NCBI GenBank assembly: GCA_045600985.1
Contig: JAZRYY010000037.1
Location: forward strand, 23,031 to 87,030
Reading direction: 5' to 3'
DNA: 64,000 nucleotides
Source: Paludibacteraceae bacterium
GTDB taxonomy: Bacteria > Bacteroidota > Bacteroidia > Bacteroidales > Paludibacteraceae
Below are positions 5,684 to 63,999 of this stretch, in pieces (within the stretch, counting starts at the first letter, position 1; every line of letters begins with the position of its first letter). Position numbers and translations under genes: made by a program. The notes below the pieces were generated by a model. It was not told where the DNA came from, did not search any database, and saw nothing but the letters and a program-made list of their open reading frames with translations.

Positions 5684-5716
5684 GGTGTTGGAGCGGTGTT
5701 CCGTTGACTTAACGTA

Positions 5717-5749
5717 GACTCAACACAGACTCAACACGGACTCATCCCG
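5717..5749. repeat. Short tandem stutter repeat (unit gactcaacacr, about 3 copies)
   Basis: Reads gactcaacaca gactcaacacg gactcatcccg, in the intergenic region after the 447-aa gene. Confidence 0.8.
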
Positions 5750-5925: not shown

Positions 5926-8900
5926 ATGAAGAAAGTATTTTCTTTCTTGGCTGCTGCTTTTATGGCAGTTAGCATGTTTGCTGCTCCTTACACCATTACC
6001 TTTAAGGGTACAGGTGTTGTTGCAGGATCGGATGGTAGTGCTAAGTTGACTACTCTGGAGGCCATCGTTGCAGAAGGTGCCAGTTATTTGTCAGCTGTAG
6101 AGAACGCTACCCAGATTTACGAAGGTCGTAGCGTCGTTTATGGCGAAAGCGACACAGTTTCATTAGGCCTTAAGTTGGGCTCTTCAAGTGCTGCTGGCAC
6201 ACTTAAATTGGTGTTGGCAACTGCTACTGAAGTCGACTCAGTTGTTGTTCGTGCTGCTCTGTATGGAGACACCGAAGGACAGAATGGTTTCACGGTAAAT
6301 GGACAGCAGGTTACTCTTAGCGCTGGTAATAAGGTGCTTGAGAATAAAGCCGTAGTTCTTACGGGTTCTGTTGCTGCTATCGAAATCATCCAAACTACTG
6401 CTTCGAGGGGTCGTTTCTACATGCAGTCTGTTACCGTTTATCCTAAGGAAGGTGGTTCTACTACTCCTGCTGGTACTACCGTTATTACGGCTGAGAAACT
6501 TTGGAGCAATCCTATCGCTAACATGACTGCGGTTGCTGATGCTCGCCAAGGTTCTGGTTACAATGGTACCGTTTATGTGCAGGATAAGGGCGCTCACACC
6601 GTTTGGGCTTATGCTAAGACTGGTGATGCTGTTACCAAGACTGCTGTCGCTACCAGCGATCTCCTCGATGGTACTGCTATCGCTGTTGACGAGGCTGGTA
6701 ATATCATCGTTGAAGGTGTGTTCCCTAACACTCCTAGCCACCTCGCTGTTATAAAAGCTGGTGAAGACACTGTACGCAACTTCGAGCACGCTGGTCTCGG
6801 ACGTACCGACTTCATCTCTGCTACTGGTGATATCTTCTCCGCTGCTGGTGGTTATGTATATCTTTATAGTAATAGCGCTAAGGCTCAGGCTGTTCACTTC
6901 GTAAATGGTGCTATCGACTCTGTTGCTGTTATCGAAAGTATTGCTACTGCGGCTACGGGCGGTCAGGTTGTGTATGCTGGTACCCCAGAGTCTTATATTG
7001 CTCAAGTACGTGCATCTGCACTTCAGTTTGTAGGTCGCGACGCTGTTACTCTTCCTAACATCTACAACTCTAAGCTTGGTTTGGATGTATTCACTATCGC
7101 TGGTAAGGAAGTATATGCTTATAACGTTGGTACTGCTTATAATAGCTACTTCCAACTTTATAACGCTACCGATGATGCTCTCATTCCTGATATGGAAGGT
7201 GCTACCATGCTCTTCGGCGTTGACCCAACGAAGGCTCAATCTACTTCTTGCGCTAACTGGCTCCGCGCTACTGTAATCGACGAAAACAACGTTTACGTTC
7301 ATCAGTATTGCGGTTCTGATGGTGCTGCTCTCTGGAAGATTTCTGCCGTACAGGCTGCTATTGTTACTCTCGCTGCTAACGATGCTGCTATGGGTACTGT
7401 AGAAGGTGCTGGCAATAAGGCAATCAACTCTTCAGTTACTGTTACCGCTACTCCTGCTATTGGTCACAGCTTCGTAGCATGGAAGAATGGTGAAGAAACT
7501 GTTTCTACTGATGCTACTTACACCTTTACTGCTACCGATAACGTATCTCTCGTTGCTGTTTTCCAGGCTGAAGAGAATAAGACTCTTACCCTTGCTGTAA
7601 ATGACGCTGAGCTTGGTGCCATCACCTTGCCAGAGGGCGTTGTAATGGGTGAGAACTCTGTTGCTTATGGTACGGAGGTTGTACTTACCGCTGTTCCTGC
7701 TGAGGGCAAAACCTTTACTGGTTGGTATTTGGCTGATGGCGCTGCTTACTCTACCGAATACACCATTACTGTAAAGATGACTGAGGCCCTTTCGCTTGTA
7801 GCAAACTTCACCAGCATCGTTACTATCACTTACGAACTCAACGGTGGTGTAACTAACGATGAAGGTTGGATTTCAAAGGCTGACGTAATGCTCTCTATTC
7901 AAGAGGACTATAATGTAGCATACAATGCTACGTTGGCAGTTGTAAAAGAAGAGAATGGTGAGTTCTATTTCAATATCAACGGTGAATGGAAGACTGAGGC
8001 TGAAGCTGCCGGTTCCGACGCTTTGGTTGCTGGTTTCTTCCAGAATAAGACATGGTCTGCTGATCAGAAGTGTGCAAACCTCTTCTTGAATACTAAGAAG
8101 GATAAATATGCATGGTTGGTTGACCTGATTGATCATTTTGCACCTACCGCAAATGCAGCTCGTGGTACTGATTCTATCCATAATATGGCAATCGCTACTG
8201 CTGATGCATATTTCCGTGCAGATGTTTCTGGCTTCATGCTGTGCTCTCCAGCTACAGGTGCATATCCATACACTTGTGATTGGTCTGTTAATGGTACTCA
8301 TTCTGCTATTCTTCCTGTTTGGAAGCACGCTTTCGCTAATCCTACAGAAATCAAGGGCGAAGTTGTCTTGAATGCTCCTTACAAGGAAGGCTTCACCTTC
8401 GATGGTTGGTATGCTACTGCTGACTTCTCAGGCGAGAAGGTGCTCTCTGTAAATACCGCAACTACCGCTACCACACTCTACGCTAAGTGGATTGAATATA
8501 TCCCAACTATCGCTGAGGTTTGCGCATTGGAGAATAATGCAACCACCAAGGTTGACGGTACTGTAACGGCTGTTATCGGTTCTGAATTCTTTATCCAAGA
8601 CGCTACCGGTGGCGTAATGTGCTATCAGTCAAATCATGGTTTGGCTGTTGGCGAGGCTGTTCGTTTGCAAGGTACGAAGGTTATCTACGGTGGTGTTCCT
8701 GAGTTGAAGAATATCACGGTTCTTTCTCACGAGGCTGGTACGGCTATTATTCCTACTGTTGCAACCATCGCTCAACTCAAGGCTGCTCCTGCTACCTATA
8801 ATGGTAAGCTCGTTAAGCTCGTCGGTGTTAAGATCGATAGCTACAAGGTTGATAGCAAGAATAACTACACGATCGGCTTGACTGATGATATCAATAAGAT

Positions 8901-10463: not shown

Positions 10464-12791
10464 ATGAAACACATTTTTAGAATAGCATTTGTTGCATTCT
10501 CATTGCTCATTGCTCATTGCTCAATTATTCCTGTTTCCGCCATCAATCTTGAGGGCGTAGATTATCGTATCGATACCATTCAGGCTTTTCAGGCCGGACC
10601 TGGCACCGATTATTTGCAGTTGCGCATGCTTCGCAATGCTGCCAACGATGGAAGATTGGATGTGTATATCTTGCGAGCTGCCACGCAAAATCCTTATCTG
10701 CAGTTCGCACATGAATTGGGTACAGGAAAAGTAATCGGCACGGAACGCCCTACGGCAATTGCTGCTCGAAAAACCACACCTACCAATATCTATTTTGCAG
10801 GAACAAATGGTTCCTTCTTCGCTACCAGTGGCGACATTGGTAAGCCGTCAGGTCTCACCGTCTCTAAAGGTCAGATCTGCTCAAATGAAAGTTCGCAAAA
10901 ATCATATCCTGTTGCGGGCTTTGATGAAAATAAATTCGCAAAATTCGGTAATGCATGGAGCTTCACGGGACGCGTGTATCGCGGCACCGACACACTCTCT
11001 ATTGCACACGTCAATTATAAACGTAATGAGAACGAACTCGTTCTCTATAATCAATACAACGCGGCCTCCACACTCACCAATGCCTATGGCACGGAACTTC
11101 TTATCTCTCTTAAAGAAGGCTATGCATGGTCAACCAATGGCAAGGTAAAAGCCACTGTCATTCGCAAGGAAGTGAATATCGGCAATATGGCTATTCCTGC
11201 CGGTCAGGCCGTCCTTTCTGGGCACGGCACTTCGGCTGCCGCACTCAACACCTTCAACGAAGGCGAAGAAATAGAAATCTATCTATCTCTCAAGCTGGAT
11301 GGCACCAAATATAGTCTTTCTGAGGCTGCTTCCGGCTCGGGTGGTGGGCACTATCAAATAATCAGCAACGGCGTTGTTCGCGATCCTGACATCTGGGCAG
11401 AGCGCCATCCACGTACGGCTATGGGTGCTACGCAAAATGGCGATACCGCTATCTTCTGCGTAGTGGACGGGCGTGGTAGTTCAATTGGCTGCACTTGCAA
11501 AACCCTCGCCCAGATTATGCACTATTATGGCGCCTACAATGCCGTCAATTGGGATGGCGGTGGCAGTTCTTGCATGTATGTTCGTCATTTCGGCCAAATG
11601 AACACGGGCTCCGATGGTAGTGAACGAGCTTGCGGCAACTCCATGTTCGTCGTAGCGCAAGTGCCAACAGATGATCAAACCATTGCTTCTATCGCGCCAT
11701 ATTGGCCTAAATATAAGCTCCCTCGCTATGGTGCGTATGCTCCTAAATTCTTTGGATATAATCAGTATGGCGTACTCGTTGATCCTGATGTCCAGGGTGT
11801 TAAATTGTCATGTGCCGATGCTGTTGGCTATGTCATTAGCGATACGCTTTTCGTGGCAAGCGGAGCAAATGGAGGCGAATTGAAAGCTCAATTGGGTACT
11901 GCTGAAACCACGATTCAAATCCAGTTAATCCAATCTGCCAGCGTGCATTTCCGTCTTGATTCTGTGATGGTGAGTCACGATAAAACATATCAGGTGGAAG
12001 TGCAAAGCCGTATTGGCATCAGCACCCTGTCGGTCCTTCCTGAAGCCCTTACGTGGCAGTCTCTCGATCCTTCCGTTTGTGAAGTGTCAGAAGCTGGCGT
12101 TATTCAGGGCATCTCCAATGGCATCACCTCTATAGTTGGCTCGCTCGGCGAATTTTCAGATACTCTTCAGGTGCGTGTGGCACTTCCTCAAATGCGCGAC
12201 TCCATTTGGGATGAAGGTACTGCCAGCCGCTGGACCCTATCCGCATCTTCTGGATATAATCCTGCATGGCGAGTAGACGATGCTGGCGTGTTTGTGGATT
12301 TCTCTTATAAAACGGCCCGTGGCCCGTTCCTCACTATGACGCACGAGGCTGAACCCATCTTCGCATTACCCGATACCATTCGCATCCCTTTGAAAACGTC
12401 GGCACAAATAGCTAAAGTAACGCTCAGTATGCGTGCCAATAATTCGTCGGCTTCGCAGGCAATGCAGTTCTTTGTCGATGGTATGCCAAAAGACGAGTGG
12501 TGCGAAATGGTGGTGCCAGTCGCTCAGGAGTTCTCTTCTGATATGGCCATCTATCCGCTTTGGCTGGAATATATCAAATATTGGTTCGATACCAAAACCC
12601 CAGCTGCCGACCATTATGTGCAGTTCGGCGGAGTACATCTCATCTGTAATGAATTTCAGCTGTCTGGCCTTGAGGATATCACGACTCTTGAGCGAGACCT
12701 GAGCGAGACCTCAAAGCTCCTCCAGGATGGCCAGATCGTCATCATTCGAAATGGCCACACCTACAACGTGCTCGGTCAACACATCCAATAA
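10464..12791 (+). CDS. Phosphodiester glycosidase family (DUF2233/NAGPA-like) protein with Ig-like domain and sorting tail
   Basis: Signal peptide. AVNWDGGGSSCMY block characteristic of the family. Colinear similarity to the next gene. Tail QDGQIVIIRNGHTYNVLGQHIQ. Confidence 0.65.
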   Translation: MKHIFRIAFVAFSLLIAHCSIIPVSAINLEGVDYRIDTIQAFQAGPGTDYLQLRMLRNAANDGRLDVYILRAATQNPYLQFAHELGTGKVIGTERPTAIAARKTTPTNIYFAGTNGSFFATSGDIGKPSGLTVSKGQICSNESSQKSYPVAGFDENKFAKFGNAWSFTGRVYRGTDTLSIAHVNYKRNENELVLYNQYNAASTLTNAYGTELLISLKEGYAWSTNGKVKATVIRKEVNIGNMAIPAGQAVLSGHGTSAAALNTFNEGEEIEIYLSLKLDGTKYSLSEAASGSGGGHYQIISNGVVRDPDIWAERHPRTAMGATQNGDTAIFCVVDGRGSSIGCTCKTLAQIMHYYGAYNAVNWDGGGSSCMYVRHFGQMNTGSDGSERACGNSMFVVAQVPTDDQTIASIAPYWPKYKLPRYGAYAPKFFGYNQYGVLVDPDVQGVKLSCADAVGYVISDTLFVASGANGGELKAQLGTAETTIQIQLIQSASVHFRLDSVMVSHDKTYQVEVQSRIGISTLSVLPEALTWQSLDPSVCEVSEAGVIQGISNGITSIVGSLGEFSDTLQVRVALPQMRDSIWDEGTASRWTLSASSGYNPAWRVDDAGVFVDFSYKTARGPFLTMTHEAEPIFALPDTIRIPLKTSAQIAKVTLSMRANNSSASQAMQFFVDGMPKDEWCEMVVPVAQEFSSDMAIYPLWLEYIKYWFDTKTPAADHYVQFGGVHLICNEFQLSGLEDITTLERDLSETSKLLQDGQIVIIRNGHTYNVLGQHIQ
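12690..12711 (+). repeat. In-frame tandem repeat gagcgagacct x2 inside the CDS (peptide ERDLSETS)
   Basis: Two exact 11-bp units, in codon phase 1 of the 10464-12791 ORF, just upstream of the C-terminal tail. Confidence 0.85.
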
Positions 12792-28618: not shown

Positions 28619-29623
28619 TTATTTTCTGCGGAACTCGGCAAGAATGACGGCCGTGGCGATGGCGACGTTCAAAGATTCAACGCGAATCTTTGAACTGTTC
28701 AAAGGCTCTGCAGGTTTCCCTTCGACATGCTCAGGGCAGGCATCCGCAGCTGGAGTTGCTGGTTTCAGGGTTTCAGTTGGTTTCAGAGTTTCAGGGGATT
28801 GGAAGGATGGAATGAAGAGCGGGTGGGTGATGAGGGTGCGCACTTCGGGCGAGATACCGTTGCCTTCGTTGCCCATGATGATAATGCCGTTCTGCTTCTG
28901 AGGAATGGCCCCCGGAGTATACATGTTAACGCCATCGAGGAGCGTGCCATAGATGGGGAGAGGGTGCCTCTCTAACTCCCCTTGGGGGAGAGTGCTTTTG
29001 CAGAAAGTTGGGGAGGCGGCACGGGAGGCGGCGCAACCTCGTTGCTCGCCTATCCATTCTACGAGATTCACGTAGTGAAGACGAACGCGGGCGAGTGCTC
29101 CCATCGTGGCCTGCACCACCTTCGGGTTCCAGCAGTCGGCCGTGTCGTGCGAGCAAACGATATGGCGGATGCCAAACCAATCCGCTGTGCGAATAATCGT
29201 ACCCAGATTGCCGGGGTCCTGCACGCCGTCGAGAACGAGAACGAGCTCGTTTTGAGGATCGGGAAGAGTGGCTGTTGAGTCGCTCTTGTGTCGCTGGAAG
29301 ACCGCTATCATGCCTTGTGGCGTCCTCATGCTCGACATTTGTTCAATTTCCGTTTCCGTTGCTTCAAAGATGAGGTCTCGCTGAGGTCTCGCTGAAGTCT
29401 CGCTGAGGTCTCGCGCAACTGCTGCTATTGAGTCTACTATGGGTCTACTATGTGTCCACGTATCGTCCACGTTGGAAAAGACCAACATTTTGAGCGGGAA
29501 GTGCTCAATAAGTTCTTCGATACATTTGTGGCCTTCGGCTACAAAAACTCCCTCTGCGTCGCGCACCTTTTTTTGCTGCAGACTGCGGATATATTTGACC
29601 TGATTTTTGCTGATGTGTTGCAT
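28619..29623 (-). CDS. SpoU/TrmH family RNA 2'-O-methyltransferase carrying three in-frame low-complexity insertions
   Basis: LVLDGVQDPGNLGTIIRTADWFG, IIIMGNEGNGIS and ESLNVAIATAVILAEF motifs. At 334 aa it is longer than the usual roughly 240-270 aa. Confidence 0.8.
   Translation of the reverse strand: MQHISKNQVKYIRSLQQKKVRDAEGVFVAEGHKCIEELIEHFPLKMLVFSNVDDTWTHSRPIVDSIAAVARDLSETSARPQRDLIFEATETEIEQMSSMRTPQGMIAVFQRHKSDSTATLPDPQNELVLVLDGVQDPGNLGTIIRTADWFGIRHIVCSHDTADCWNPKVVQATMGALARVRLHYVNLVEWIGEQRGCAASRAASPTFCKSTLPQGELERHPLPIYGTLLDGVNMYTPGAIPQKQNGIIIMGNEGNGISPEVRTLITHPLFIPSFQSPETLKPTETLKPATPAADACPEHVEGKPAEPLNSSKIRVESLNVAIATAVILAEFRRK
28761..28796 (-). repeat. CTGAAAC-family stutter repeat inside the trmH-like CDS (peptide PETLKPTETLKP)
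   Basis: Plus strand reads ggtttcagggtttcagttggtttcagagtttcagg. Positions 28779-28795 are the exact reverse complement of 63676-63692. Confidence 0.85.
29011..29034 (-). repeat. Stutter repeat gggaggcggcRc x2 inside the trmH-like CDS
   Basis: Reads gggaggcggcac gggaggcggcgc. It lies in the segment encoding GCAASRAASP. Confidence 0.75.
29372..29415 (-). repeat. Tandem 11-bp repeat gaggtctcgct x4 inside the trmH-like CDS (peptide RDLSETSARPQRDL)
   Basis: Four consecutive 11-bp units with 1-nt variants. This is the reverse complement of the gagcgagacct family seen at 12690. Confidence 0.9.
29430..29473 (-). repeat. Two adjacent 11-bp stutter pairs (gtctactatgg x2, gtccacgtatc x2) inside the trmH-like CDS
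   Basis: Reads gagtctactatgggtctactatgtgtccacgtatcgtccacgtt. Confidence 0.8.
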
Positions 29624-42901: not shown

Positions 42902-42950
42902 CACGAGTGTTCCACGAGAGTTGGACGAGAGTTGGACGAGACCTCGACGA
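42902..42950. repeat. Stutter repeat (gttggacgaga x2 plus cacgag variants, ending in cgagacctc)
   Basis: Reads cacgagtgttccacgagagttggacgagagttggacgagacctcgacg. Confidence 0.75.
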
Positions 42951-42974
42951 TATCTCAAACATCTCCAAAATCAC

Positions 42975-43000
42975 AAAAAACGTACTTTTTTTAAGATTTA
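42975..43000 (-). repeat. AT-rich repeat (reverse complement TAAATCTTAAAAAAAGTACGTTTTTT)
   Basis: Same family as 27511-27536. Confidence 0.7.
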
Positions 43001-51887: not shown

Positions 51888-52022
51888 TTGGTCAAGCCAC
51901 ACAATAGCGACACTTGAACGACACCTGAACGACACTTGAGCCACTCAAGAGAGACACCTGAACGACTCAAAAGCTTCTCAAGTCGCAAGTCCCGCTCAGG
52001 TGGCTTGACCAACATTTTTTTT
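51888..52022 (+). terminator. Terminator-like hairpin after glyQS with a ~99-nt stutter-repeat loop
   Basis: 13-bp arms ttggtcaagccac (51888-51900) and gtggcttgaccaa (52000-52012), followed by 8 T (52015-52022). The loop contains acttgaacgac / acctgaacgac / acctgaacgac-type units. Confidence 0.5.
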
Positions 52023-52178: not shown

Positions 52179-52252
52179 GGTGCGGTAGTTCAGTTGGTTA
52201 GAATATCGGCCTGTCACGCCGGAGGTCGCGGGTTCGAGTCCCGTCCGCACCG
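52179..52252 (+). tRNA. tRNA-Asp (anticodon GTC)
   Basis: Hand-folded cloverleaf. Acceptor GGTGCGG/CCGCACC, D-arm GTTC..GAAT, anticodon stem TCGGC/GCCGG with loop CTGTCAC, T-arm GCGGG TTCGAGT CCCGT, discriminator G. CCA is not encoded. Confidence 0.85.
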
Positions 52253-52305
52253 CAAAAGCATTGAGCATCGGCTCGATGCTTTTTTGCGTTTAGTGCAGGG
52301 CTCTG
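52221..52305 (+). repeat. Direct repeat copy 1 (tRNA-Asp 3' half plus terminator plus 20 bp)
   Basis: 85 bp repeated almost exactly at 52366-52452. Confidence 0.9.
52257..52286 (+). terminator. Terminator after tRNA-Asp
   Basis: agcattgagc / gctcgatgct stem (one G-T pair), loop atcg, then ttttt. Confidence 0.7.
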
Positions 52306-52365
52306 TTCCCGCGTACGCCGATTGATCGTTCGAACGAAGTGAGATAAGAATATCCTTTATATAAC

Positions 52366-52452
52366 GGAGGTCGCGGGTTCGAGTCCCGTCCGCACCGCAA
52401 AAAGCATTGAGCATCGGCTCGATGCTTTTTTTGCGTTTAGTGCAGGGCTCTG
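52366..52452 (+). repeat. Direct repeat copy 2, containing a 3' tRNA-Asp fragment (52366-52397) and a second terminator
   Basis: ggaggtcgcgggttcgagtcccgtccgcaccg plus the terminator hairpin and tttagtgcagggctctg. It differs from copy 1 only by extra A/T in the homopolymer runs. Confidence 0.9.
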
Positions 52453-52673
52453 ATCTCGCGTTATTCCCGATTTAACGATTTGGCGGTTTTACTATGCCTC
52501 GGTATCTCTCCAGAATATCGCCTGCAAACTCTATGCCTAATCCGTGGAACTTTTCCGTACCCACTTCTCTTTCTTGATTACATAAAAGCTTTGGTGAGAA
52601 ACACAAAAAAATGCATTCAAACATGTAAAAACACAAAAAAAGTCCGCTTTTTCCATAGAAAATGCCTCGAAAA

Positions 52674-56975: not shown

Positions 56976-59084
56976 ATGACAACAAATATATTACATTTAT
57001 CAATTAACGATCTATTGCTGGATCCTAACAATTATCGTTTTATTGATGCAGATCATTATGTCCATACCAGTGAAGAACGATATGCTGACGAAAAAGTACA
57101 ATCAAATACATATCGACTTGTTACAGGAAAAAATAATGATGGTATATTGGATCTTATTAGCAGTTTTAAAGCGAATGGATTCATCAATGATGGTGAAATT
57201 CAGGTTAGGAAACATGAACTGTCAGGCAAGTATCTCGTAATAGAAGGAAACAGACGAGTTTCTACCCTTTTGTATTTCCGTAGGATGTTGAAGGATGGAT
57301 ATGCTTTTGATAAAATTGGTGATGCCGATTTGAGCGATATCATCGTTAAAGAAATAAAAGACATTGATCAGCTTTCCTATAAAATTGCTATGGGATTGCA
57401 GCATGTAGCAGGAAAAAAGAAATGGAATCCTATTAATCAGGCACAACTTCTGTATGATCTCATTTATGAAAATAACGTACCAGAGGATGAAGTGTGTGCT
57501 TCTCTTGGTTTGTCAAAGCAGGCTGTGCGTAAAAGCATACGTACTTTATTTCTGATTAAAGCATATCGTCAAAGTGATTTTGGTGATCAAATGCAAAGTG
57601 CAAAGTACTCCTTCTTTGAGGAAGCTATAAAGAATCCTCAGATGCGTGATTGGTTAGGATGGAATGACGACAGTAAAAAATGTGAAAATTCATTGAATCA
57701 AGAACGCTTCTTTACATGGATTTCCAATACGACAGATGAATATGGTAATACCATATCCGCAATAATAGAGAAAAGTGTGGATGTGCGACGACTTACCTCA
57801 ATTATTACCAACGAGGCAGCATTAAGACATATGGAAGAAGTCCATTCCTTTGAAGATGCTTACACATATACTGCAAATGATAACAAAGCTGCTGTTCAAT
57901 ATGCATTAAACAGGTTGGAAACCACTCTTCCTACATTAATAGCTAATAGTGTTTATTTGTCCAAAAATGAACAAGATCAATTAAGGAGACTTGTTGCAGC
58001 ATTAAAACCAGTCGTTGATGCAGATGAGATACGTTTGGGCGTTTTCTCCTCTATTAGTGTCTTTAACGAACTGACATGTCATTTTTCAGAAGTAAAGATA
58101 CATAGATTCAGAGGAATTAGCGAAATGGCACTGTCCACGCTATCAGATGTGAACCTTTTTGTCGGTGAAAATAATTGCGGTAAAACAAGTTTGCTGGAAG
58201 CAATTTACATGCTGACACAACAGAACAATATCAAACGCTATCTTGAGATGGAACAATTGAGATCTAAGAATCAAGGTAGCATTCATACAGACTGGTTAGT
58301 TAATTATGTTGCAAAATCTTTTGATATAGAGGGTACATTCAATGGATATCGATGTAGTGTAAACTTTTCATGCAAACCTTCAGAAAGTAAAAAACTTGAT
58401 AAGAATAACTACATTACGACTCTATCATCAACTTCTTCAATTGATATGCCTGATGGCGTATTTAAGTCATACCTGCATCTTTACAATAATAAGCAGCCTG
58501 TTCTCAATTACGATAGAATCGCAAACTTGTGCCCGAGTGCATTATCTTCCTCTTATCGAAGAGACTTCAATGCATTTATAACGGCTCATCGTATTGCCGT
58601 GGAAAAAGGTGTAATGCCAGAAATCATAGATTTTCTTGTAAAGCATGTTGACCCTGCCATTCAAAATATTCAACTCACGGGGGAAGATGGCTCGAATCGT
58701 TTTGTAGTCACTACTCGTAATAATTCGATTGGGCAGGATTTGACTAAGTTCGGAGAAGGACTGCAGCGAGTATTTGAGATTTCTCTTTATATTGCAGCAT
58801 GTGCAAATGGTTGCTTATTTGTGGATGAGATAGATTCTGCAATTCATAAAAAACTGCTTCCTAATTTTATAAGGCAAGTCGTGACACTTTGTAATCGTTT
58901 TAATGTTCAGCTCTTTGTAACCACGCACAGCAAAGAATGTATAGACATTTTCGCTAATGCGGGACTTGGTACACAATTGTCAGCATATAGATTACGTCCT
59001 CTTGGTAACGATTGCACCATAAATTATACAGATGGTGAGAATCTGAAAGAAATGATTGACATGTTTAATGTAGATATACGATAA
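56976..59084 (+). CDS. ParB/Srx-like N-terminal domain + HTH + ABC/OLD-type (AAA_15/AAA_21-like) ATPase fusion
   Basis: LSINDLLLDPNNYRF and YLVIEGNRRVSTL (ParB-box-like). HTH-like EDEVCASLGLSKQAVRKSIRTL. Walker A GENNCGKTSLLEAI (397-410), signature-like FGEGLQR, Walker B CLFVDEIDSAIH, H-loop LFVTTHSKE. Confidence 0.7.
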   Translation: MTTNILHLSINDLLLDPNNYRFIDADHYVHTSEERYADEKVQSNTYRLVTGKNNDGILDLISSFKANGFINDGEIQVRKHELSGKYLVIEGNRRVSTLLYFRRMLKDGYAFDKIGDADLSDIIVKEIKDIDQLSYKIAMGLQHVAGKKKWNPINQAQLLYDLIYENNVPEDEVCASLGLSKQAVRKSIRTLFLIKAYRQSDFGDQMQSAKYSFFEEAIKNPQMRDWLGWNDDSKKCENSLNQERFFTWISNTTDEYGNTISAIIEKSVDVRRLTSIITNEAALRHMEEVHSFEDAYTYTANDNKAAVQYALNRLETTLPTLIANSVYLSKNEQDQLRRLVAALKPVVDADEIRLGVFSSISVFNELTCHFSEVKIHRFRGISEMALSTLSDVNLFVGENNCGKTSLLEAIYMLTQQNNIKRYLEMEQLRSKNQGSIHTDWLVNYVAKSFDIEGTFNGYRCSVNFSCKPSESKKLDKNNYITTLSSTSSIDMPDGVFKSYLHLYNNKQPVLNYDRIANLCPSALSSSYRRDFNAFITAHRIAVEKGVMPEIIDFLVKHVDPAIQNIQLTGEDGSNRFVVTTRNNSIGQDLTKFGEGLQRVFEISLYIAACANGCLFVDEIDSAIHKKLLPNFIRQVVTLCNRFNVQLFVTTHSKECIDIFANAGLGTQLSAYRLRPLGNDCTINYTDGENLKEMIDMFNVDIR

Positions 59085-59085
59085 A

Positions 59086-59898
59086 ATGGTAGTAAAGATT
59101 CTTTTAGTTGAAGGAAGACATGATGCTGCCTTTATCGGCCGTATCTTAAAAGCCAATGGTTATGAAGATAGCAAATTGACAATCGGTGAATATCCTGAGT
59201 TTATCAAAGGCTATCTTACGAAGTTCTTTGAAGGAGCGCATATAGAGGATTCTACAATCAAGAACGTGGTTTCTAACTTATTCCTTCCTTCTTCATCACT
59301 TTCAGTATCGTCGGATCCTAATCAAATGTTGATTATTTTCCCCATGGGCGGTGATGCACAAAAAGACAGAAGAAGAGAACTTATTAGAAAGCTGTACAAA
59401 ATATTTAGCAACCCAATGTTTCAGGATGGAAAAGACTCACTTAAGATTATCTATAATCTTGATGCCGATGAACATGGTATTGCATTTCGAGAGCAGCAGG
59501 TTAATGAGGAATTACATGAGATAACAGATTCATCTATTCCTGAAATACATAATACATCTTGGACTCCATTTTGCGGAATTCAATGGGGATTATATGTGTT
59601 TGCTGATCCAACCACAGGAAAAGGGAAACTGGAGAATTTAGTACTGCCCCTTATTGAAGATAATAAAGAGGACCTAAAGTCATTAGTTGATAATTTTGTT
59701 TTCGAGCGTCCCAAAATGAATTATTGGAACACAAAATACAAACAGTACGATGAAGAGAAAGCCCGTATTAGTATGATGTGCCAAATGGAAATTTCGGGAG
59801 CTGCAAATACCACATTGCTCGTCAAAACAGGTCTAATTGATGATAGAAAACTTCAGACAGGTATTTATAAAGCAATAGTTGACTATATAACTTCATGA
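59086..59898 (+). CDS. Toprim-like protein (DUF3226/DUF4435/DUF4276-like)
   Basis: Starts 1 nt after the ATPase stop. KILLVEGRHDAAFI (Glu9) and IIYNLDADEHG (Asp126-x-Asp128) fit the E...DxD Toprim pattern. 270 aa. Confidence 0.55.
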   Translation: MVVKILLVEGRHDAAFIGRILKANGYEDSKLTIGEYPEFIKGYLTKFFEGAHIEDSTIKNVVSNLFLPSSSLSVSSDPNQMLIIFPMGGDAQKDRRRELIRKLYKIFSNPMFQDGKDSLKIIYNLDADEHGIAFREQQVNEELHEITDSSIPEIHNTSWTPFCGIQWGLYVFADPTTGKGKLENLVLPLIEDNKEDLKSLVDNFVFERPKMNYWNTKYKQYDEEKARISMMCQMEISGAANTTLLVKTGLIDDRKLQTGIYKAIVDYITS

Positions 59899-60348
59899 TT
59901 GATTATTTGTGTGTTTATTTACCCTAGTTCTTCATCTTGACTCAAGTTTTGAGAATATGATCGAACCATCCATCTAAAATATTCTTCAAATGCTTGATAC
60001 ACGTCCCTTGATACTGCAAGGAACCGCTTACGAGTCCTTCGGTCGTAAAATTTGCCCCATTCTACTTAACCAGTTTATAACAGTGTGTCACACAGTGGAT
60101 TATGTGTGCTCAAATTCATGATGGCAATTCCATTTGGGACCGATTTGGGACTATGAAGGAAAAGGGTGTGGCGTAGGTGTGAGGGACATCTTGACATTAC
60201 TCAGAAGACCCTCCCTGTTGCCGAAAGCATCAAATCGTCGAAAAGAATTAAAATCAGGTAAGAACTCTCTCACAAGGAATAAACCATTTCGGTGGCGTCA
60301 ACGATTTGGTCTCTACCCATATCTTTTCGTTGACCTCACTGATATGAT

Positions 60349-60648
60349 CGTTTCGTCATCGTTACCTTATTTTGTAAAGTCGCTCACCCGTCCCTTGAAT
60401 GGGATGTAAAATCGTTATCGTAGCAAAGCGTATCGTCATCGTCATCGTACGAAGTGGTACACCCGTCCCCCGTCGCGTGCATTCCGATGCTGTGCTATTG
60501 GAGGTGAGGACTTGCTTTTGGGACCTGCTTTGATGATCCGTTGAATGGAGATTTGGATTATATAACAATGAACGCGTATAAGTAAGATCAACTCAATAAG
60601 TCATCGTTATCGCCATCGTCTTCGTACGAAGCAAACACCCGTCCCCCG
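60349..60648. repeat. Three related segments (catcgt-type hexamer stutter followed by CACCCGTCCC) in a 1.2-kb non-coding stretch
   Basis: Copies at 60349-60395, 60411-60471 and 60599-60648. The last two share tcgtacgaag..acacccgtccccc. Confidence 0.65.
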
Positions 60649-61046
60649 AATATTCTTGGAGTATCTCCACGTTTTTGTCCGCTCGTCATCCTCAAAGAGG
60701 TGACGCTTTCATAGCGTAAGCGGAGAAAGAACCCTTCACAACCCCCGTAAGGGCTCCTCAAACAATTCATAACCCCAAATAGAGAACAATAAAACAAAAC
60801 GATATGTTAATACCTAATGTAAACCTGACCGGTAAGACCTCGGCTGGTGATGCTTAGGTGAAACCGCCCTCCACACCCTATTGCCTATCAGCAACAGAGT
60901 GTTCCGGGCTAAACAGAGAACAATACGCCAGAGTCTTCCCATCGCCTGCCTTGAGCCAGTCGAAGGGGTCAGACACAGGCTCAAAAATATAATCCACGAA
61001 AATTCGCGGATCATTCACGGACATTCGCGTTAAGGAAAAACAACCC

Positions 61047-61085
61047 CTCGAACCGTTCAAACATTTCGAACCATTCGAACACATT
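61047..61085. repeat. Stutter repeat (ttcgaacc-type units) upstream of the fnlB-like gene
   Basis: Reads ctcgaaccgttcaaacatttcgaaccattcgaacacatt. Confidence 0.7.
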
Positions 61086-61117
61086 ATAGAATATAATAGA
61101 AAAAAATAATTAACAAT

Positions 61118-62365
61118 ATGCATATACTCGTAACCGGTGCGAAAGGTTTCGTAGGAAAGAACCTCTGCGCACAACTCAACAACATCAAAGAAGGCAAGGC
61201 TAAATGCTATGGCGACCTCGTAGTAGAGGATGTCTATCAGTACGATATCGACTCTACGCCAGAGCAACTTGATGAATACTGCCAAAAGGCTGATTTCGTT
61301 TTCAACCTCGCTGGTGTCAACCGTCCTCAAAACCAGGAGGAATTTATGCAGGGCAATTTCGGCTTCGCTTCTACGCTGCTTGATACCCTCAAGAAACACC
61401 ACAACACTTGTCCGGTGATGTTGTCCAGTTCTATCCAGGCCACGCTTGCCGGCCGTTTCGGCACGTCTGAATATGGCAAGAGCAAGAAGGCAGGTGAGGA
61501 ACTTTTCTTCGATTATAGCAAAGAAACGGGCGCTAAGGTACTCGTATATCGATTCCCTAATCTTTATGGCAAGTGGTGTCGTCCTAACTACAACTCGGCT
61601 GTGGCTACGTTCTGCAATAATATCGCCAACGACCTGCCTATCACGGTCAACGACCCAACCGTAGATATGGAACTTCTCTATATCGACGACCTCGTTGAGG
61701 AAATGATCTGTGCACTCAAAGGCGAGGAACACTATTGCACTTTCGATGGTGTCAATGCCATACCACTTGAAACCTCTGAAACTTTGGAACTTGAAACTAA
61801 AGGCGAACATGCGTACGCCTACTGTCCCATCACCCATCACGTCAAGTTGGGCGAGATTGTGGACCTCCTCAATCAGTTTGCCGAGATGCCAAAGACCCTC
61901 ATGATTCCTGAGATCCCTGCCGATTCGTTCGCAAAACGCCTCTATAGCACTTTCCTCAGTTATCTACCTAAAGAGAAAGCCATCTTCGATCTTAAGATGA
62001 ACGTAGATCCACGCGGTAGCTTTACGGAATTGGTTCATACCCTCAATTGCGGTCAGGTCAGCATCAACATCTCCAAGCCGGGCATTACCAAGGGCCAGCA
62101 TTGGCACCACACCAAATGGGAGCAGTTCATCGTCGTTTCCGGCCATGGTCTCATCCAACTCCGCAACGAGAATGATCCTAATGGCGAGATTCTTAATTAT
62201 GAAGTCTATGGCGATAAGATTCAGTCCGTCCTCATGCTCCCTGGCTACACTCACAATATCATCAATCTGAGCGATACTGAAGATTTAGTCACAGTCATGT
62301 ACTGCAACGAGATCTTTAACCCCAATCGCCCGGACACTTACTTCGATCCCGTGGAGCCAAAGTAG
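61118..62365 (+). CDS. fnlB: CapF/WbjC(FnlB)-like bifunctional SDR + cupin enzyme of UDP-L-FucNAc-type sugar synthesis
   Basis: ILVTGAKGFVGKNL, LAGVNRP, LSSSIQA, FPNLYGKWCRPNYNSAVATFC, with a C-terminal cupin-like half. This closely parallels the CapF layout. Confidence 0.7.
   Translation: MHILVTGAKGFVGKNLCAQLNNIKEGKAKCYGDLVVEDVYQYDIDSTPEQLDEYCQKADFVFNLAGVNRPQNQEEFMQGNFGFASTLLDTLKKHHNTCPVMLSSSIQATLAGRFGTSEYGKSKKAGEELFFDYSKETGAKVLVYRFPNLYGKWCRPNYNSAVATFCNNIANDLPITVNDPTVDMELLYIDDLVEEMICALKGEEHYCTFDGVNAIPLETSETLELETKGEHAYAYCPITHHVKLGEIVDLLNQFAEMPKTLMIPEIPADSFAKRLYSTFLSYLPKEKAIFDLKMNVDPRGSFTELVHTLNCGQVSINISKPGITKGQHWHHTKWEQFIVVSGHGLIQLRNENDPNGEILNYEVYGDKIQSVLMLPGYTHNIINLSDTEDLVTVMYCNEIFNPNRPDTYFDPVEPK
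61766..61797 (+). repeat. CTGAAAC-family stutter repeat in frame in the fnlB-like gene (peptide LETSETLELET)
   Basis: Reads cttgaaacctctgaaactttggaacttgaaac, in codon phase 1 of the ORF, in the linker between the SDR and cupin halves. Confidence 0.8.
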
Positions 62366-62393
62366 TTTCAAGTTTCATGTTCCAAGATTCAAG
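62366..62393 (-). repeat. Inverted copy of the TTGAATC/TGAAAC repeat family, left flank of the four-helix-bundle gene
   Basis: Plus strand reads tttcaagtttcatgttccaagattcaag. The reverse complement is cttgaatcttggaacatgaaacttgaaa. Confidence 0.65.
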
Positions 62394-62395
62394 AT

Positions 62396-62797
62396 ATGGC
62401 AAAAGCAGAAAAGTTTGAAGATTTGGTAATCTTCCAGAAAGCACGTGAACTTTGTAAAGAAGTTTATCGTGTGACAAATCAAGAACCGTGGAAATACGAT
62501 ACACGATTTGTACAGCAAATCCATGCAGCTGTTGGCAGCATTATGGATAATATTGCTGAAGGTTACGAACGTGATGGCAACAAGGAGTTCAAGAACTTCC
62601 TATATATTGCCAAAGGATCATGTGGTGAGGTTCGCTCTCAGATAATTCGAGCTTCTGATGTTGGTTTTATAGATTCAGAAACATCAACGAAGTTATATAA
62701 TGATTGTATAGCTCTCAACAAGAGCATTGCAGCCTTTATCAAGAGTCTTCGTGTGGGCGGAATTTCCGGTATCAAGTACATGGAACCTGAATCCTGA
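62396..62797 (+). CDS. Four-helix-bundle protein (23S rRNA intervening-sequence protein family)
   Basis: FEDLVIFQKARELCKEVYRVT..., DNIAEGYER, AKGSCGEVRSQ signature blocks. The last codons (MEPES) are supplied by the flanking repeat. Confidence 0.8.
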   Translation: MAKAEKFEDLVIFQKARELCKEVYRVTNQEPWKYDTRFVQQIHAAVGSIMDNIAEGYERDGNKEFKNFLYIAKGSCGEVRSQIIRASDVGFIDSETSTKLYNDCIALNKSIAAFIKSLRVGGISGIKYMEPES

Positions 62798-62849
62798 AAC
62801 CACCTGAATCCTGAAACCACCTGAATCCAGAAACTTGAATCCTGAAACC
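62785..62849 (+). repeat. 17-bp tandem repeat acctgaatcctgaaacc, about 3.8 copies
   Basis: Exact units at 62785-62801 and 62802-62818, variant acctgaatccagaaact at 62819-62835, partial tgaatcctgaaacc at 62836-62849. Confidence 0.9.
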
Positions 62850-62904
62850 AAAGAATATCGAAAGTATAACAAATAATATAAACATATAATAAACAAACGT
62901 TCTT

Positions 62905-63999
62905 ATGAGTATTTTCAAAGACAAAGTCCTCATGATTACCGGTGGTACCGGTTCATTTGGTAATGCAGTTCTCAACCGTTTCCTGAAGACCGACATTGCA
63001 GAGATCCGCATCTTCTCTCGTGACGAGAAGAAGCAGGACGATATGCGTCACCTCTATCAGGTAACCATGCCCGAGGTAGCCAACAAAATCAAGTTCTACA
63101 TCGGTGATGTTCGCGACCTCCAGTCTTGCCGCAACGCAATGCCTGGTGTTGACTACATCTTCCATGCAGCAGCCCTCAAGCAGGTGCCTTCTTGCGAGTT
63201 CTTCCCTATGGAAGCCGTTCGCACCAATGTCATTGGTACCGACAATGTCCTCACCGCTGCTATCGAGGCCAAGGTGGGCGCTGTTATCTGCCTTTCAACC
63301 GATAAGGCTGCCTATCCTATCAACGCCATGGGTATCACCAAGGCTATCGAGGAGAAGATTGCAGTAGCAAAGAGTCGTTACTCAGGTGATACCAAGATCT
63401 GTTGCACCCGTTATGGCAACGTGATGTGCTCTCGTGGCTCCGTTATCCCTCTGTGGATTGACCAGATTCGCAACGGTAATCCTATCACCATCACCGAACC
63501 AAAGATGACACGCTTCATCATGTCGCTTGAAGAAGCCGTTGACCTCGTTCTCTTCGCTTTCGAGCATGGTCAGAATGGTGATATCCTCGTCCAGAAAGCT
63601 CCTGCCTGCACCATCCAAACTCAGGCAGAGGCTGTAATCGATCTCTTCAAGCATCAGTTCGCACAGAACTTGAATCCTGAAACTCTGAAACCTGAAACCT
63701 CAGAACCCGAAATTCGTGTCATTGGCATCCGTCACGGTGAGAAGCTCTACGAGACCCTCCTCACCAACGAAGAGTGTGCCAAAGCCGAGGATATGGGCAA
63801 CTTCTATCGCGTTCCTGCTGACAACCGTGGCTTGAACTACGATAAGTACTTCAAGGAAGGTGACGAAAAGCGTAACACCCTCACCGAGTTCAACTCCGAC
63901 AATACCACCCGTCTCAACCTCGAAGAGACCAAGTCCAAGATTGCCGCACTCGAGTATATCCAGAATGAGCTCAAAGGTATCGAAAATATAGCTAAGTAA
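62905..63999 (+). CDS. fnlA: FnlA/CapE/WbjB-like UDP-GlcNAc 4,6-dehydratase/5-epimerase
   Basis: KVLMITGGTGSFGNAVLNRFL, IRIFSRDEKKQDDMR, YIGDVRD, HAAALKQVPSCEF. 364 aa including a repeat-derived insert. Confidence 0.8.
   Translation: MSIFKDKVLMITGGTGSFGNAVLNRFLKTDIAEIRIFSRDEKKQDDMRHLYQVTMPEVANKIKFYIGDVRDLQSCRNAMPGVDYIFHAAALKQVPSCEFFPMEAVRTNVIGTDNVLTAAIEAKVGAVICLSTDKAAYPINAMGITKAIEEKIAVAKSRYSGDTKICCTRYGNVMCSRGSVIPLWIDQIRNGNPITITEPKMTRFIMSLEEAVDLVLFAFEHGQNGDILVQKAPACTIQTQAEAVIDLFKHQFAQNLNPETLKPETSEPEIRVIGIRHGEKLYETLLTNEECAKAEDMGNFYRVPADNRGLNYDKYFKEGDEKRNTLTEFNSDNTTRLNLEETKSKIAALEYIQNELKGIENIAK
63664..63712 (+). repeat. CTGAAAC-family stutter repeat in frame in the fnlA-like gene (peptide QNLNPETLKPETSEPEI)
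   Basis: Reads cagaacttgaatcctgaaactctgaaacctgaaacctcagaacccgaaatt, in codon phase 1. Positions 63676-63692 are identical to the reverse complement of 28779-28795. Confidence 0.85.

Follow-up and report, generated by a model that had tools for sequence, protein, structure and literature searches.

An S23p four-helix-bundle gene between tandem-repeat arms: an intervening-sequence-type cassette outside rRNA in a Paludibacteraceae capsule locus

The cassette and its parts

The subject of this work is a small element lying within 64,000 nucleotides of DNA from a Paludibacteraceae bacterium (contig JAZRYY010000037.1 of assembly GCA_045600985.1), a stretch named here the window. In a capsule locus, between a CapF/FnlB-like gene (61118-62365) and a CapE/FnlA-like gene (62905-63999), an S23p open reading frame (ORF) is enclosed between two arrays of short tandem repeats. 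With high confidence, we regard the segment 62364-62850 as a cassette of the type found as intervening sequences (IVS) in 23S rRNA, here located outside rRNA, and as a member of a widespread array-bracketed design. The cassette, about 487 bp long and made of a left arm, the ORF and a right arm, occupies the 539-bp spacer between the two genes, with the same orientation as both. Its parts are as follows.

62364-62850, plus strand: whole cassette; its arms close the stem in the minimum free energy (MFE) fold, and in the related loci L080 and L206 it stands out as a self-contained stretch of similarity
62364-62393, minus strand: left arm, 4.3 degenerate heptamers (Tandem Repeats Finder, TRF, period 7; cluster of the YTGAAWC type)
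62396-62797, plus strand: S23p/four-helix-bundle ORF of 133 codons (PF05635, TIGR02436)
62785-62850, plus strand: right arm, 4.1 copies of the 17-mer ACCTGAATCCTGAAACC (TRF period 17, score 97)

The units of the left arm are of the AGTTTCA type on the plus strand, and read CTTGAAT, CTTGGAA, CATGAAA and CTTGAAA on the minus strand. This arm overlaps at its start the stop codon region of the CapF-like gene and ends 2 nt before the ATG of the cassette ORF, the gap from the upstream stop to that ORF being 30 nt. The right arm consists of some eight heptamers CCTGAAW (CTGAAWC type) together with CCA spacers, and it displays a TGA in each of the three frames. The ORF terminates inside it, as ...atg gaa cct gaa tcc TGA, where the codons for E-P-E-S and the stop are supplied by the array. 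In a pattern scan of the window, YTGAAWC clusters are present at five sites only, 28762-28796 (minus), 61767-61797 (plus), 62365-62393 (minus), 62787-62848 (plus) and 63670-63698 (plus), while CCTGAAAC occurs in 8 copies where 1.6 are expected, a count reached in none of 100 shuffles. The left flank is the weakest element of the cassette, yet it is complementary to the right array to a significant degree (Smith-Waterman score 12.0, which 0 of 1000 shuffles, p < 0.001, and 3 of 3935 further 32-nt windows attain). An initial annotation, made from the letters alone, had drawn the same picture of a four-helix-bundle gene bracketed by inverted repeats, the right-hand ones providing its last codons and stop; sequence reading, the ORF list and TRF bear out all its element coordinates, and formal alignment settles in its favour whether the left flank is truly similar.

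A weak CCAAAG repeat is visible at the two outer edges of the cassette in the window and is missing from L080; comparison of the edges in these two sequences did not establish a target-site duplication. The window has one four-helix-bundle gene only. In the interval 60.9-64 kb there is no Rfam match for the cassette at E <= 1, and no rRNA lies nearby.

The ORF matches PF05635, its sole Pfam family, with 109.1 bits (E=1.6e-31, cut-off 33.8) and TIGR02436 with 107.6 bits (E=3.6e-31, cut-off 24), and phmmer relates it to the structure 2gsc of Xcc0516 (E=4.6e-9). An AlphaFold 2 model of the monomer (pLDDT 89.1) has four helices and a disordered tail, residues 121-133, encoded by the repeats. Foldseek ranks Xcc0516 first (2gsc, TM 0.90), then BT_0352 (2rld, TM 0.87), then Avd, a protein of diversity-generating retroelements (DGRs), with TM 0.80-0.85 to 4dwl and 8ub7 at merely 8-10% sequence identity. 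The predicted structure shows the Xcc0516/BT_0352/Avd fold. A Pfam scan of the ORF revealed no transposase, and we know of no catalytic activity in a four-helix bundle of this kind. The ratio dN/dS has a median of 0.05 over close ORF pairs and is 0.11 between the window and L080; judged from these ratios, the ORF is under strong purifying selection.

Arms around homologous genes

A family scan restricted to one genome per species yielded 79 loci with relatives at 32-82% identity, mostly from Bacteroidales of rumen and gut; Algoriphagus, Gaoshiqia and Sinomicrobium also contribute some. For 83 homologous Bacteroidota genes the upstream flank was aligned with the reverse complement of the gene's own downstream flank, and a match was retained when its score was above that of every shuffle. 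Such alignment-based tests were used instead of a strict tandem-ness threshold, which under-counted degenerate arrays. Inverted flanks characterize 59 of these 83 genes (71%), to be compared with 10 of 250 ORFs of the same loci (4%) and 44 of 300 mismatched cross-locus pairs. Flanks match on the same strand, that is, as direct repeats, in 32 of the 83 genes, and 74 (89%) have either inverted or direct matches. The bracketing by inverted repeats noticed in the window therefore extends to other four-helix-bundle genes. A test based on exact 6-mers led to 46 of 75 genes, against a null of 8%.

TRF detects an array upstream of 62 of 75 genes, ending at a median of 10.5 nt before the ATG, and downstream of 65 of 75, starting at a median of 3 nt after the stop. 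Because the downstream array begins at or before the stop (31 of 75 genes), the C-termini of homologues read ...NLKPES, ...KHLEP or ...KFQDPSSKFQE..EPET. The repeat unit differs between lineages, being GTTTCAG, GTTTAAG, GTTCAAA, GTTTGAT, GGTTAA, GTTGCAG, CGTTTTCGTT or others, and the partner arm matches it in each case: gtttcag is paired with ctgaaac, gtttaag with cttaaac, gttcaaa with tttgaac, gtttgat with atcaaac, ggttaa with ttaacc, gttgcag with ctgcaac and aacgaaaacg with cgttttcgtt. The comparison of these sequences shows that the repeat unit covaries on both sides of the ORF across lineages. Four-helix-bundle genes have the orientation of both their neighbours in 56 of 75 cases. Since cassettes are nearly always co-oriented with their neighbours, they probably ride on the host operon transcript, co-transcription being the likely way in which they are expressed.

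Movement and turnover

When the window is aligned with L080, which carries an ORF 94% identical, similarity runs from the first heptamer to the last (62850), with L080 one 17-bp unit shorter; a check for phase variation placed this difference in copy number downstream of the stop codon. L012, L015 and L024 have the same block structure, with boundaries at the array ends. In 111 ORF pairs of at least 75% identity having no homologous flanking gene within 2.2 kb, the arrays are similar (Smith-Waterman score about 20, against a background of about 8). At the level of sequence, this shows that an ORF brings its arrays along when it comes to lie among unrelated genes.

The site between an Epimerase_2 gene and CapE is the clearest case. 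In L206 it harbours a cassette of the window's lineage, 87% identical, with gtttcaag/cctgaaac arms. In L081 its occupant is a four-helix-bundle gene that is truncated, unrelated (identity about 25% by eye) and bordered by ggtttaa/ttaaacc arrays, despite flanking genes that are 89% and 96% identical to those of L206. The alignment of the two loci breaks right after the upstream stop codon and again about 30 nt before the CapE ATG. Among other capsule loci, L083 has its cassette between CapF and Epimerase_2, L030 has one upstream of CapF, and L084/85 are without any. These alignments show that cassettes turn over at intergenic sites, and related capsule loci that lack the cassette or are arranged otherwise, as the idea of a mobile cassette had led one to seek, do exist. 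In L083 (3780-4000) the CapE-CapF spacer contains inverted arrays without an ORF, gtttgaaa/gttcaaaa ... ctttaac/tttcaac, possibly a vehicle without cargo or the remains of a cassette. A scan of viral contigs brought up no close relatives.

Solo arrays in reading frames

Three enzymes encoded in the window display solo arrays of the cassette's repeat.

61766-61797, plus strand: LETSETLELET, in the interdomain loop of the CapF/FnlB-like gene (61118-62365); unaligned to the CapF structure 2zkl
63667-63712, plus strand: NLNPETLKPETSEPE, in a loop of the CapE/FnlA-like gene (62905-63999); TRF period 7
28761-28796, minus strand: PETLKPTETLKP, in a 38-residue insertion before the ESLNV motif of a SpoU/TrmH-like gene (28619-29623); TRF period 8/18

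Most CapF homologues (402-404 residues) are without the first array, variants of which are present in P0122 and L206. The insert in the CapE-like protein adds 13-15 residues as compared with 4j2o and 3vvb, and it is missing from the orthologues of L081 and L206, which are 86-87% identical. The TrmH-like array is an insertion with respect to 2i6d, and none of 33 aligned orthologues has the PETLKP array. An exact 17-mer, CCTGAAACTCTGAAACC, is found both at 28779-28795 (minus) and at 63676-63692 (plus), 33 kb apart, where 0 are expected. The initial annotation had reported the in-frame copies in all three genes as well as this common 17-mer, and both statements stand, the copies being insertions relative to solved homologues in every case. 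In each of the three solos CTGAAAC is read on the sense strand, at an irregular spacing of 7, 8 or 10 nt that avoids an in-frame TGA; this spacing would reflect selection for hydrophilic, stop-free loops. On sequence comparison, solos are lineage-specific insertions in surface loops. Single-oriented, in frame, lineage-specific and far commoner than cassettes, they are not excision footprints of the cassette, a possibility that had been raised and that we rejected. Arrays of a cassette's own unit occur at 10.2 per 100 kb elsewhere in the same locus, against 1.45 in other genomes; this roughly 7-fold enrichment indicates that repeat units are genome-specific.

Several traits of the host proteins deserve mention. 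The interdomain loop of CapF is a hot spot for insertion, accommodating many different low-complexity inserts; in the homologue P0227 it even contains a whole DUF559/PF04480 endonuclease domain, and in the CapF of L206 (440-1756) an 18-residue insert is nested within a LETSE..TLELET array. The SpoU/TrmH-like methyltransferase (28619-29623, minus strand) is 334 residues long, against 238-245 in most orthologues, and has three lineage-specific insertions, the 38-residue one directly preceding the ESLNV motif of the SPOUT knot region. Look-ups by exact sequence gave nothing for the four-helix-bundle and CapF proteins of the window, although a CapF (P0121) and a TrmH (P0241) with 100% identity are present on a single 116-kb NCBI contig.

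Arrays elsewhere and a second cargo family

An unbiased metagenome scan for (CCTGAAA)3C matched at least 120 contigs, of 30-67% GC. Among the matches listed, 83 arrays were usable, and for 33 of these an inverted partner lies no more than 400 bp off, the usual distance being 6-160 nt. In all fetched DNA there are 256 inverted array pairs, 75 of them around four-helix-bundle genes and 2 around genes of the GxxExxY family (PF13366/TIGR04256, PDDEXK_3). These latter genes have the same kind of flanking arrays, often inverted, in most of the nine cases seen, and GxxExxY is a second cargo family of the array-bracketed design. None of the 120 metagenomic matches listed has a GxxExxY gene within 700 bp of the array. 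Array-boxed examples, with repeats such as cattaat...attaatg, are the following.

L081:5292-5792: GxxExxY gene
L013:3112-3483: GxxExxY gene
L036:2378-2785 and 6758-7108: two GxxExxY genes
L007:6510-6881: GxxExxY gene
L170:10494-10892: GxxExxY gene

On the metagenomic contig L158 (7190-9300), heptamer arrays are present in successive spacers of a ribosomal-protein operon and bracket rplF: arrays can colonise essential operons. The window itself has a second repeat family, with 11-bp units (GCGAGACCTCA-like, CGACACTTGAA-like), of which every copy has a single orientation. Its sites are 29371-29414, 29266-29295, 29432-29456, 12689-12711, 5716-5744, 42902-42979 and 51897-51982, that is, in frame in the TrmH-like gene, near the C-terminus of the ORF 10464-12791 and in several intergenic spacers. 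No cognate small gene for this family was found in the 64-kb window.

Comparison with known systems

The closest counterpart of the cassette is the ORF-bearing 23S rRNA IVS of Coxiella, Leptospira and Brucella. The two have in common the protein family, complementary termini around the ORF, a size of about 430-490 nt and tandem heptamers directly upstream of the ATG. In Coxiella burnetii, the IVS has a 28-bp terminal stem, which RNase III cuts at the first repeat, and 3-4 tandem heptamers (GACAGAT), variable in number between strains, before the S23p ATG (PMC4990558). The link with rRNA intervening sequences made in the initial annotation thus holds. Differences are also clear. The IVS sits in helix 25 or 45 of 23S rRNA, the cassette in the intergenic spacer of a protein-coding operon; and the arms of the cassette are almost wholly tandem repeats. 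The S23p ORF of the Coxiella IVS is reported as decaying (PMC4990558), whereas that of the cassette is strongly conserved: its low dN/dS argues that the protein matters.

REP/RAYT systems (repetitive extragenic palindromic sequences, forming REPINs, with their transposase genes) resemble the cassette in that inverted copies of a short repeat, itself scattered through the same genome, stand on either side of a single gene, that ORF-less inverted pairs are abundant and that each gene lineage has its own repeat sequence. RAYTs are Y1 HUH transposases and REPs are imperfect palindromes of about 20-35 nt, whereas the cassette ORF is a four-helix bundle and its units are tandem 7-mers. In DGRs the likeness is in the fold and the Pfam family context, Avd being placed, within the DGR ribonucleoprotein, against structured RNA on the flank of the template (bioRxiv 10.1101/2023.10.23.563531). 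Membership of a DGR was rejected: no RVT (reverse transcriptase) domain is present in the 11 ORFs scanned over 50.3-64 kb, and no template/variable repeat pair (about 100 bp) in 52-64 kb, where direct repeats of at least 30 nt are duplicated tRNA-region segments only, near 52.2 kb.

Geobacter metallireducens has tandem hepta- or octanucleotide repeats paired on opposite strands about 100 bp apart, both intergenic and intragenic, interpreted as regulator binding sites, with TTCTGAA/TCCTGAA as the class 3 unit (PMC2700814). This unit resembles that of the cassette, and the short tandemly repeated repetitive (STRR) heptamers of heterocystous cyanobacteria likewise have tandem 7-8-nt units; these reports come from other taxa and make no link to S23p or GxxExxY genes. 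Rickettsia palindromic elements, which are 100-150 nt long and palindromic, are in-frame insertions in protein genes. Like the solos, they illustrate that short repeats are tolerated in frame in surface regions of enzymes; unlike them, they are not tandem heptamers. As in insertion sequences and miniature inverted-repeat transposable elements, the arms are inverted and delimit the similarity block, the cassette having no transposase. An integron gene cassette has a single attC at its 3' end, while here repeats stand on both sides. CRISPR arrays, with 23-50-nt repeats and unique spacers, were ruled out, the 7-nt units following each other head to tail without spacers. Genes annotated 23S_rRNA_IVP have been noted inside cas operons (PMC3936711). 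We found no description in the open-access literature of a general boxing of S23p or GxxExxY genes by inverted mobile tandem arrays, although an earlier description elsewhere is possible.

Interpretation

The explanation that we deem best, with a probability of roughly 0.55, is that of a widespread miniature cassette in which an S23p ORF sits between tandem-repeat arms, usually mutual reverse complements, that act as a stem. The arms would pair to form a long stem enclosing the ORF, a design as in the IVS, where RNase III cuts the stem, and in the rRNA IVS one would see a general element at one of its landing sites. In the capsule operon, the stem would be one of polycistronic RNA or else of single-stranded DNA, and would act as the terminal inverted repeat of the element. 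The protein, by analogy with Avd, would be a nucleic-acid-binding toroid, with the folded nucleic acid of the element that encodes it as its most likely target. Heptamers in tandem would make pairing tolerant of register, and a TGA in every frame would ensure termination of the ORF. The solo arrays would belong to this repeat family too, having expanded or inserted on their own in surface loops that permit it; such loops would tolerate only the orientation encoding hydrophilic residues (P/E/T/L/K). In this mode of action, a stem made by the arms and a protein working on its own structured nucleic acid, we have moderate confidence.

The initial annotation had suspected a long stem in the flanks, and MFE folds of 62350-62865 do predict one around the ORF on both strands (z = -3.7 sense, -5.1 antisense), the antisense stem being about 29 bp long. 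In inverted-type cassettes generally, the arms are 82% Watson-Crick paired. The inverted arrays also have a polarity, the G-rich arm (GTTTCAG) coming before the C-rich one (CTGAAAC) by 30 to 3 among the metagenomic matches listed and by 50 to 15 around four-helix-bundle and GxxExxY genes, which a plain hairpin does not predict.

To be sure, a number of observations weigh against this explanation. In inverted-type cassettes the signature of a sense-RNA stem, an excess of G.U over A.C, was not found: arm mismatches are 76 G.U against 112 A.C on the sense strand, next to 1826 Watson-Crick pairs, and duplex stability is on the side of the antisense strand by 38 loci to 18 (p = 7e-4), so that the antisense, or bottom, strand is favoured if anything. 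We consequently do not claim selection for a sense-RNA helix; the complementarity of the arms may be preserved in the DNA itself, where template switching or arm-to-arm conversion could maintain it, or its effect may lie on the other strand. Furthermore, 39% of cassettes carry flanks in the same orientation. A four-helix-bundle gene lies 700 bp or less from the array in only 7 of the 120 metagenomic matches listed, and among the 256 inverted pairs 108 have no ORF and 71 enclose something else (rplF, a ParE toxin, an AAA ATPase, etc.). As most arrays are thus without the gene and so many inverted pairs ORF-less, the arrays are the more general entity, and the small ORFs their frequent, specific residents. 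By the same count of 7 in 120, the other view put forward at the outset, that solo repeats are independently spreading units, is the better fit.

Mobility has to be weighed with equal care. The lineage of the window keeps its cassette upstream of CapE in all three relatives found, and neither a recombinase nor a target-site duplication nor an intermediate was detected. The differences between the window and L080 appear from their alignment to be a loss of Epimerase_2 at the left arm in the window and another CapE allele at the right arm in L080; local rearrangement explains these differences as well as transposition does. The argument that this pair proves transposition was accordingly weakened, L206 showing that the lineage stays upstream of CapE while genes are lost or alleles exchanged at the arms. 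The case for mobility rests instead on co-travel, block boundaries and the L206/L081 site. Of the original proposal of a mobile or recombinogenic cassette, what stands is that arrays move together with their ORF and that sites turn over; no transposition event was caught for the window's own lineage.

Alternative explanations

The small protein, whether a four-helix bundle or a GxxExxY protein of the PD-(D/E)XK type, might itself make and disperse the arrays as in REP/RAYT systems, its gene lying among copies of the cognate repeat, with ORF-less pairs and solos as non-autonomous progeny. The local enrichment of own-unit arrays speaks for such a process, as do the three solos of the window, which use the cassette's unit and of which two have the distant 17-mer in common, the abundance of ORF-less pairs, the nuclease fold of one cargo family and the strong conservation of the ORF. 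Yet the four-helix bundle is without known catalysis, CTGAAAC arrays are scattered in contigs of widely different GC content, mostly with no gene of either family nearby (among the matches listed), and the 11-mer arrays of the window have no cognate gene in 64 kb; this renders the process unlikely. Arrays could alternatively be cis-regulatory sites that bind a protein, operator-like or of the IHF/HU type, controlling the cassette gene or the capsule gene downstream. The paired heptanucleotide sites of Geobacter were interpreted in this way (PMC2700814), and the polarity of the arms is easier to understand through recognition by a protein than through a plain hairpin. The unit sequence, however, varies widely among cassettes that are close relatives, arrays and ORF move together, and operators make little sense downstream of stops and inside coding loops, where arrays are also found. 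We see this role as distinctly unlikely.

Coincidence would be a more prosaic answer: slippage throughout the clade would create stutter repeats in permissive spacers, and four-helix-bundle genes would tend to occupy long spacers. Arrays are indeed common, with 15 TRF arrays in the window, most of them unrelated to the cassette, and a density of 6.9 per 10 kb across all fetched loci, and low-complexity inserts of many kinds are found in the loops of CapF and TrmH orthologues. This leaves unexplained the reverse-complement flanks (71% against 4%), the co-travel of units with ORFs and the similarity blocks that end where arrays end, so that coincidence is largely refuted and improbable. Finally, the hairpin of the arms could benefit the host as an RNA element, stabilising the mRNA of the capsule operon, marking a processing site or acting as an attenuator, the ORF being incidental. 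A co-directional operon starting with an UpxY/NusG-like gene and a stable predicted stem would suit this role, but an incidental ORF would hardly be under strong purifying selection, close capsule loci do without a cassette at that junction, and the same cassettes are present in many unrelated operons; we give it very little credence.

Other features of the capsule locus

The capsule locus opens with the UpxY/NusG-like gene at 52480 and is co-directional. Just upstream of this gene, at 52220-52461, lies a tandem duplication of about 146 bp with a tRNA-like 3' segment (GGTTCGAGTCCC...). Further on, 56976-59898 encodes a 702-residue protein with AAA_15/AAA_21 ATPase matches at residues 369-656, then a DUF3226 protein; similar pairs of an ATPase and a small ORF are present in the related loci L080 (1241-3036) and L083 (800-2427), and the pair may be a module of the defence or toxin type. 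The 1.2 kb upstream of the CapF-like gene (59898-61118) have no convincing ORF and end in more short arrays (61002-61108; units TCGAACC/ATTCACGGAC).

Significance

In Bacteroidota and other phyla, S23p/four-helix-bundle and GxxExxY genes rank with the most frequent small genes that lack an explanation, and these families occur inside CRISPR, restriction and capsule operons (PMC3936711). The question of where rRNA intervening sequences come from goes back to about 1990. With a box of inverted arrays that is conserved, that moves and is replaced as a unit and that has the same design as the rRNA IVS, the 'scattered gene' becomes a defined element, with arms, ORF and junctions that can be tested. 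For annotation, it matters that arrays extend ORFs, mimic CRISPR-like repeats and add low-complexity loops to housekeeping enzymes. In the lineage of the window, cassettes are found at two junctions of capsule-locus rearrangement. A bolder suggestion, which we make tentatively and consider rather unlikely, is that array-bracketed cassettes form a distinct class of mobile elements, in which an Avd-like toroid or a GxxExxY nuclease acts on its own arms and in this way creates short tandem arrays and disperses them over the genome. If this were true, a single process would stand behind the ORF-bearing rRNA IVS, the abundant ORF-less heptamer hairpins of many phyla, among them the paired repeats of Geobacter and possibly the cyanobacterial STRRs, and the in-frame insertions in enzyme loops.

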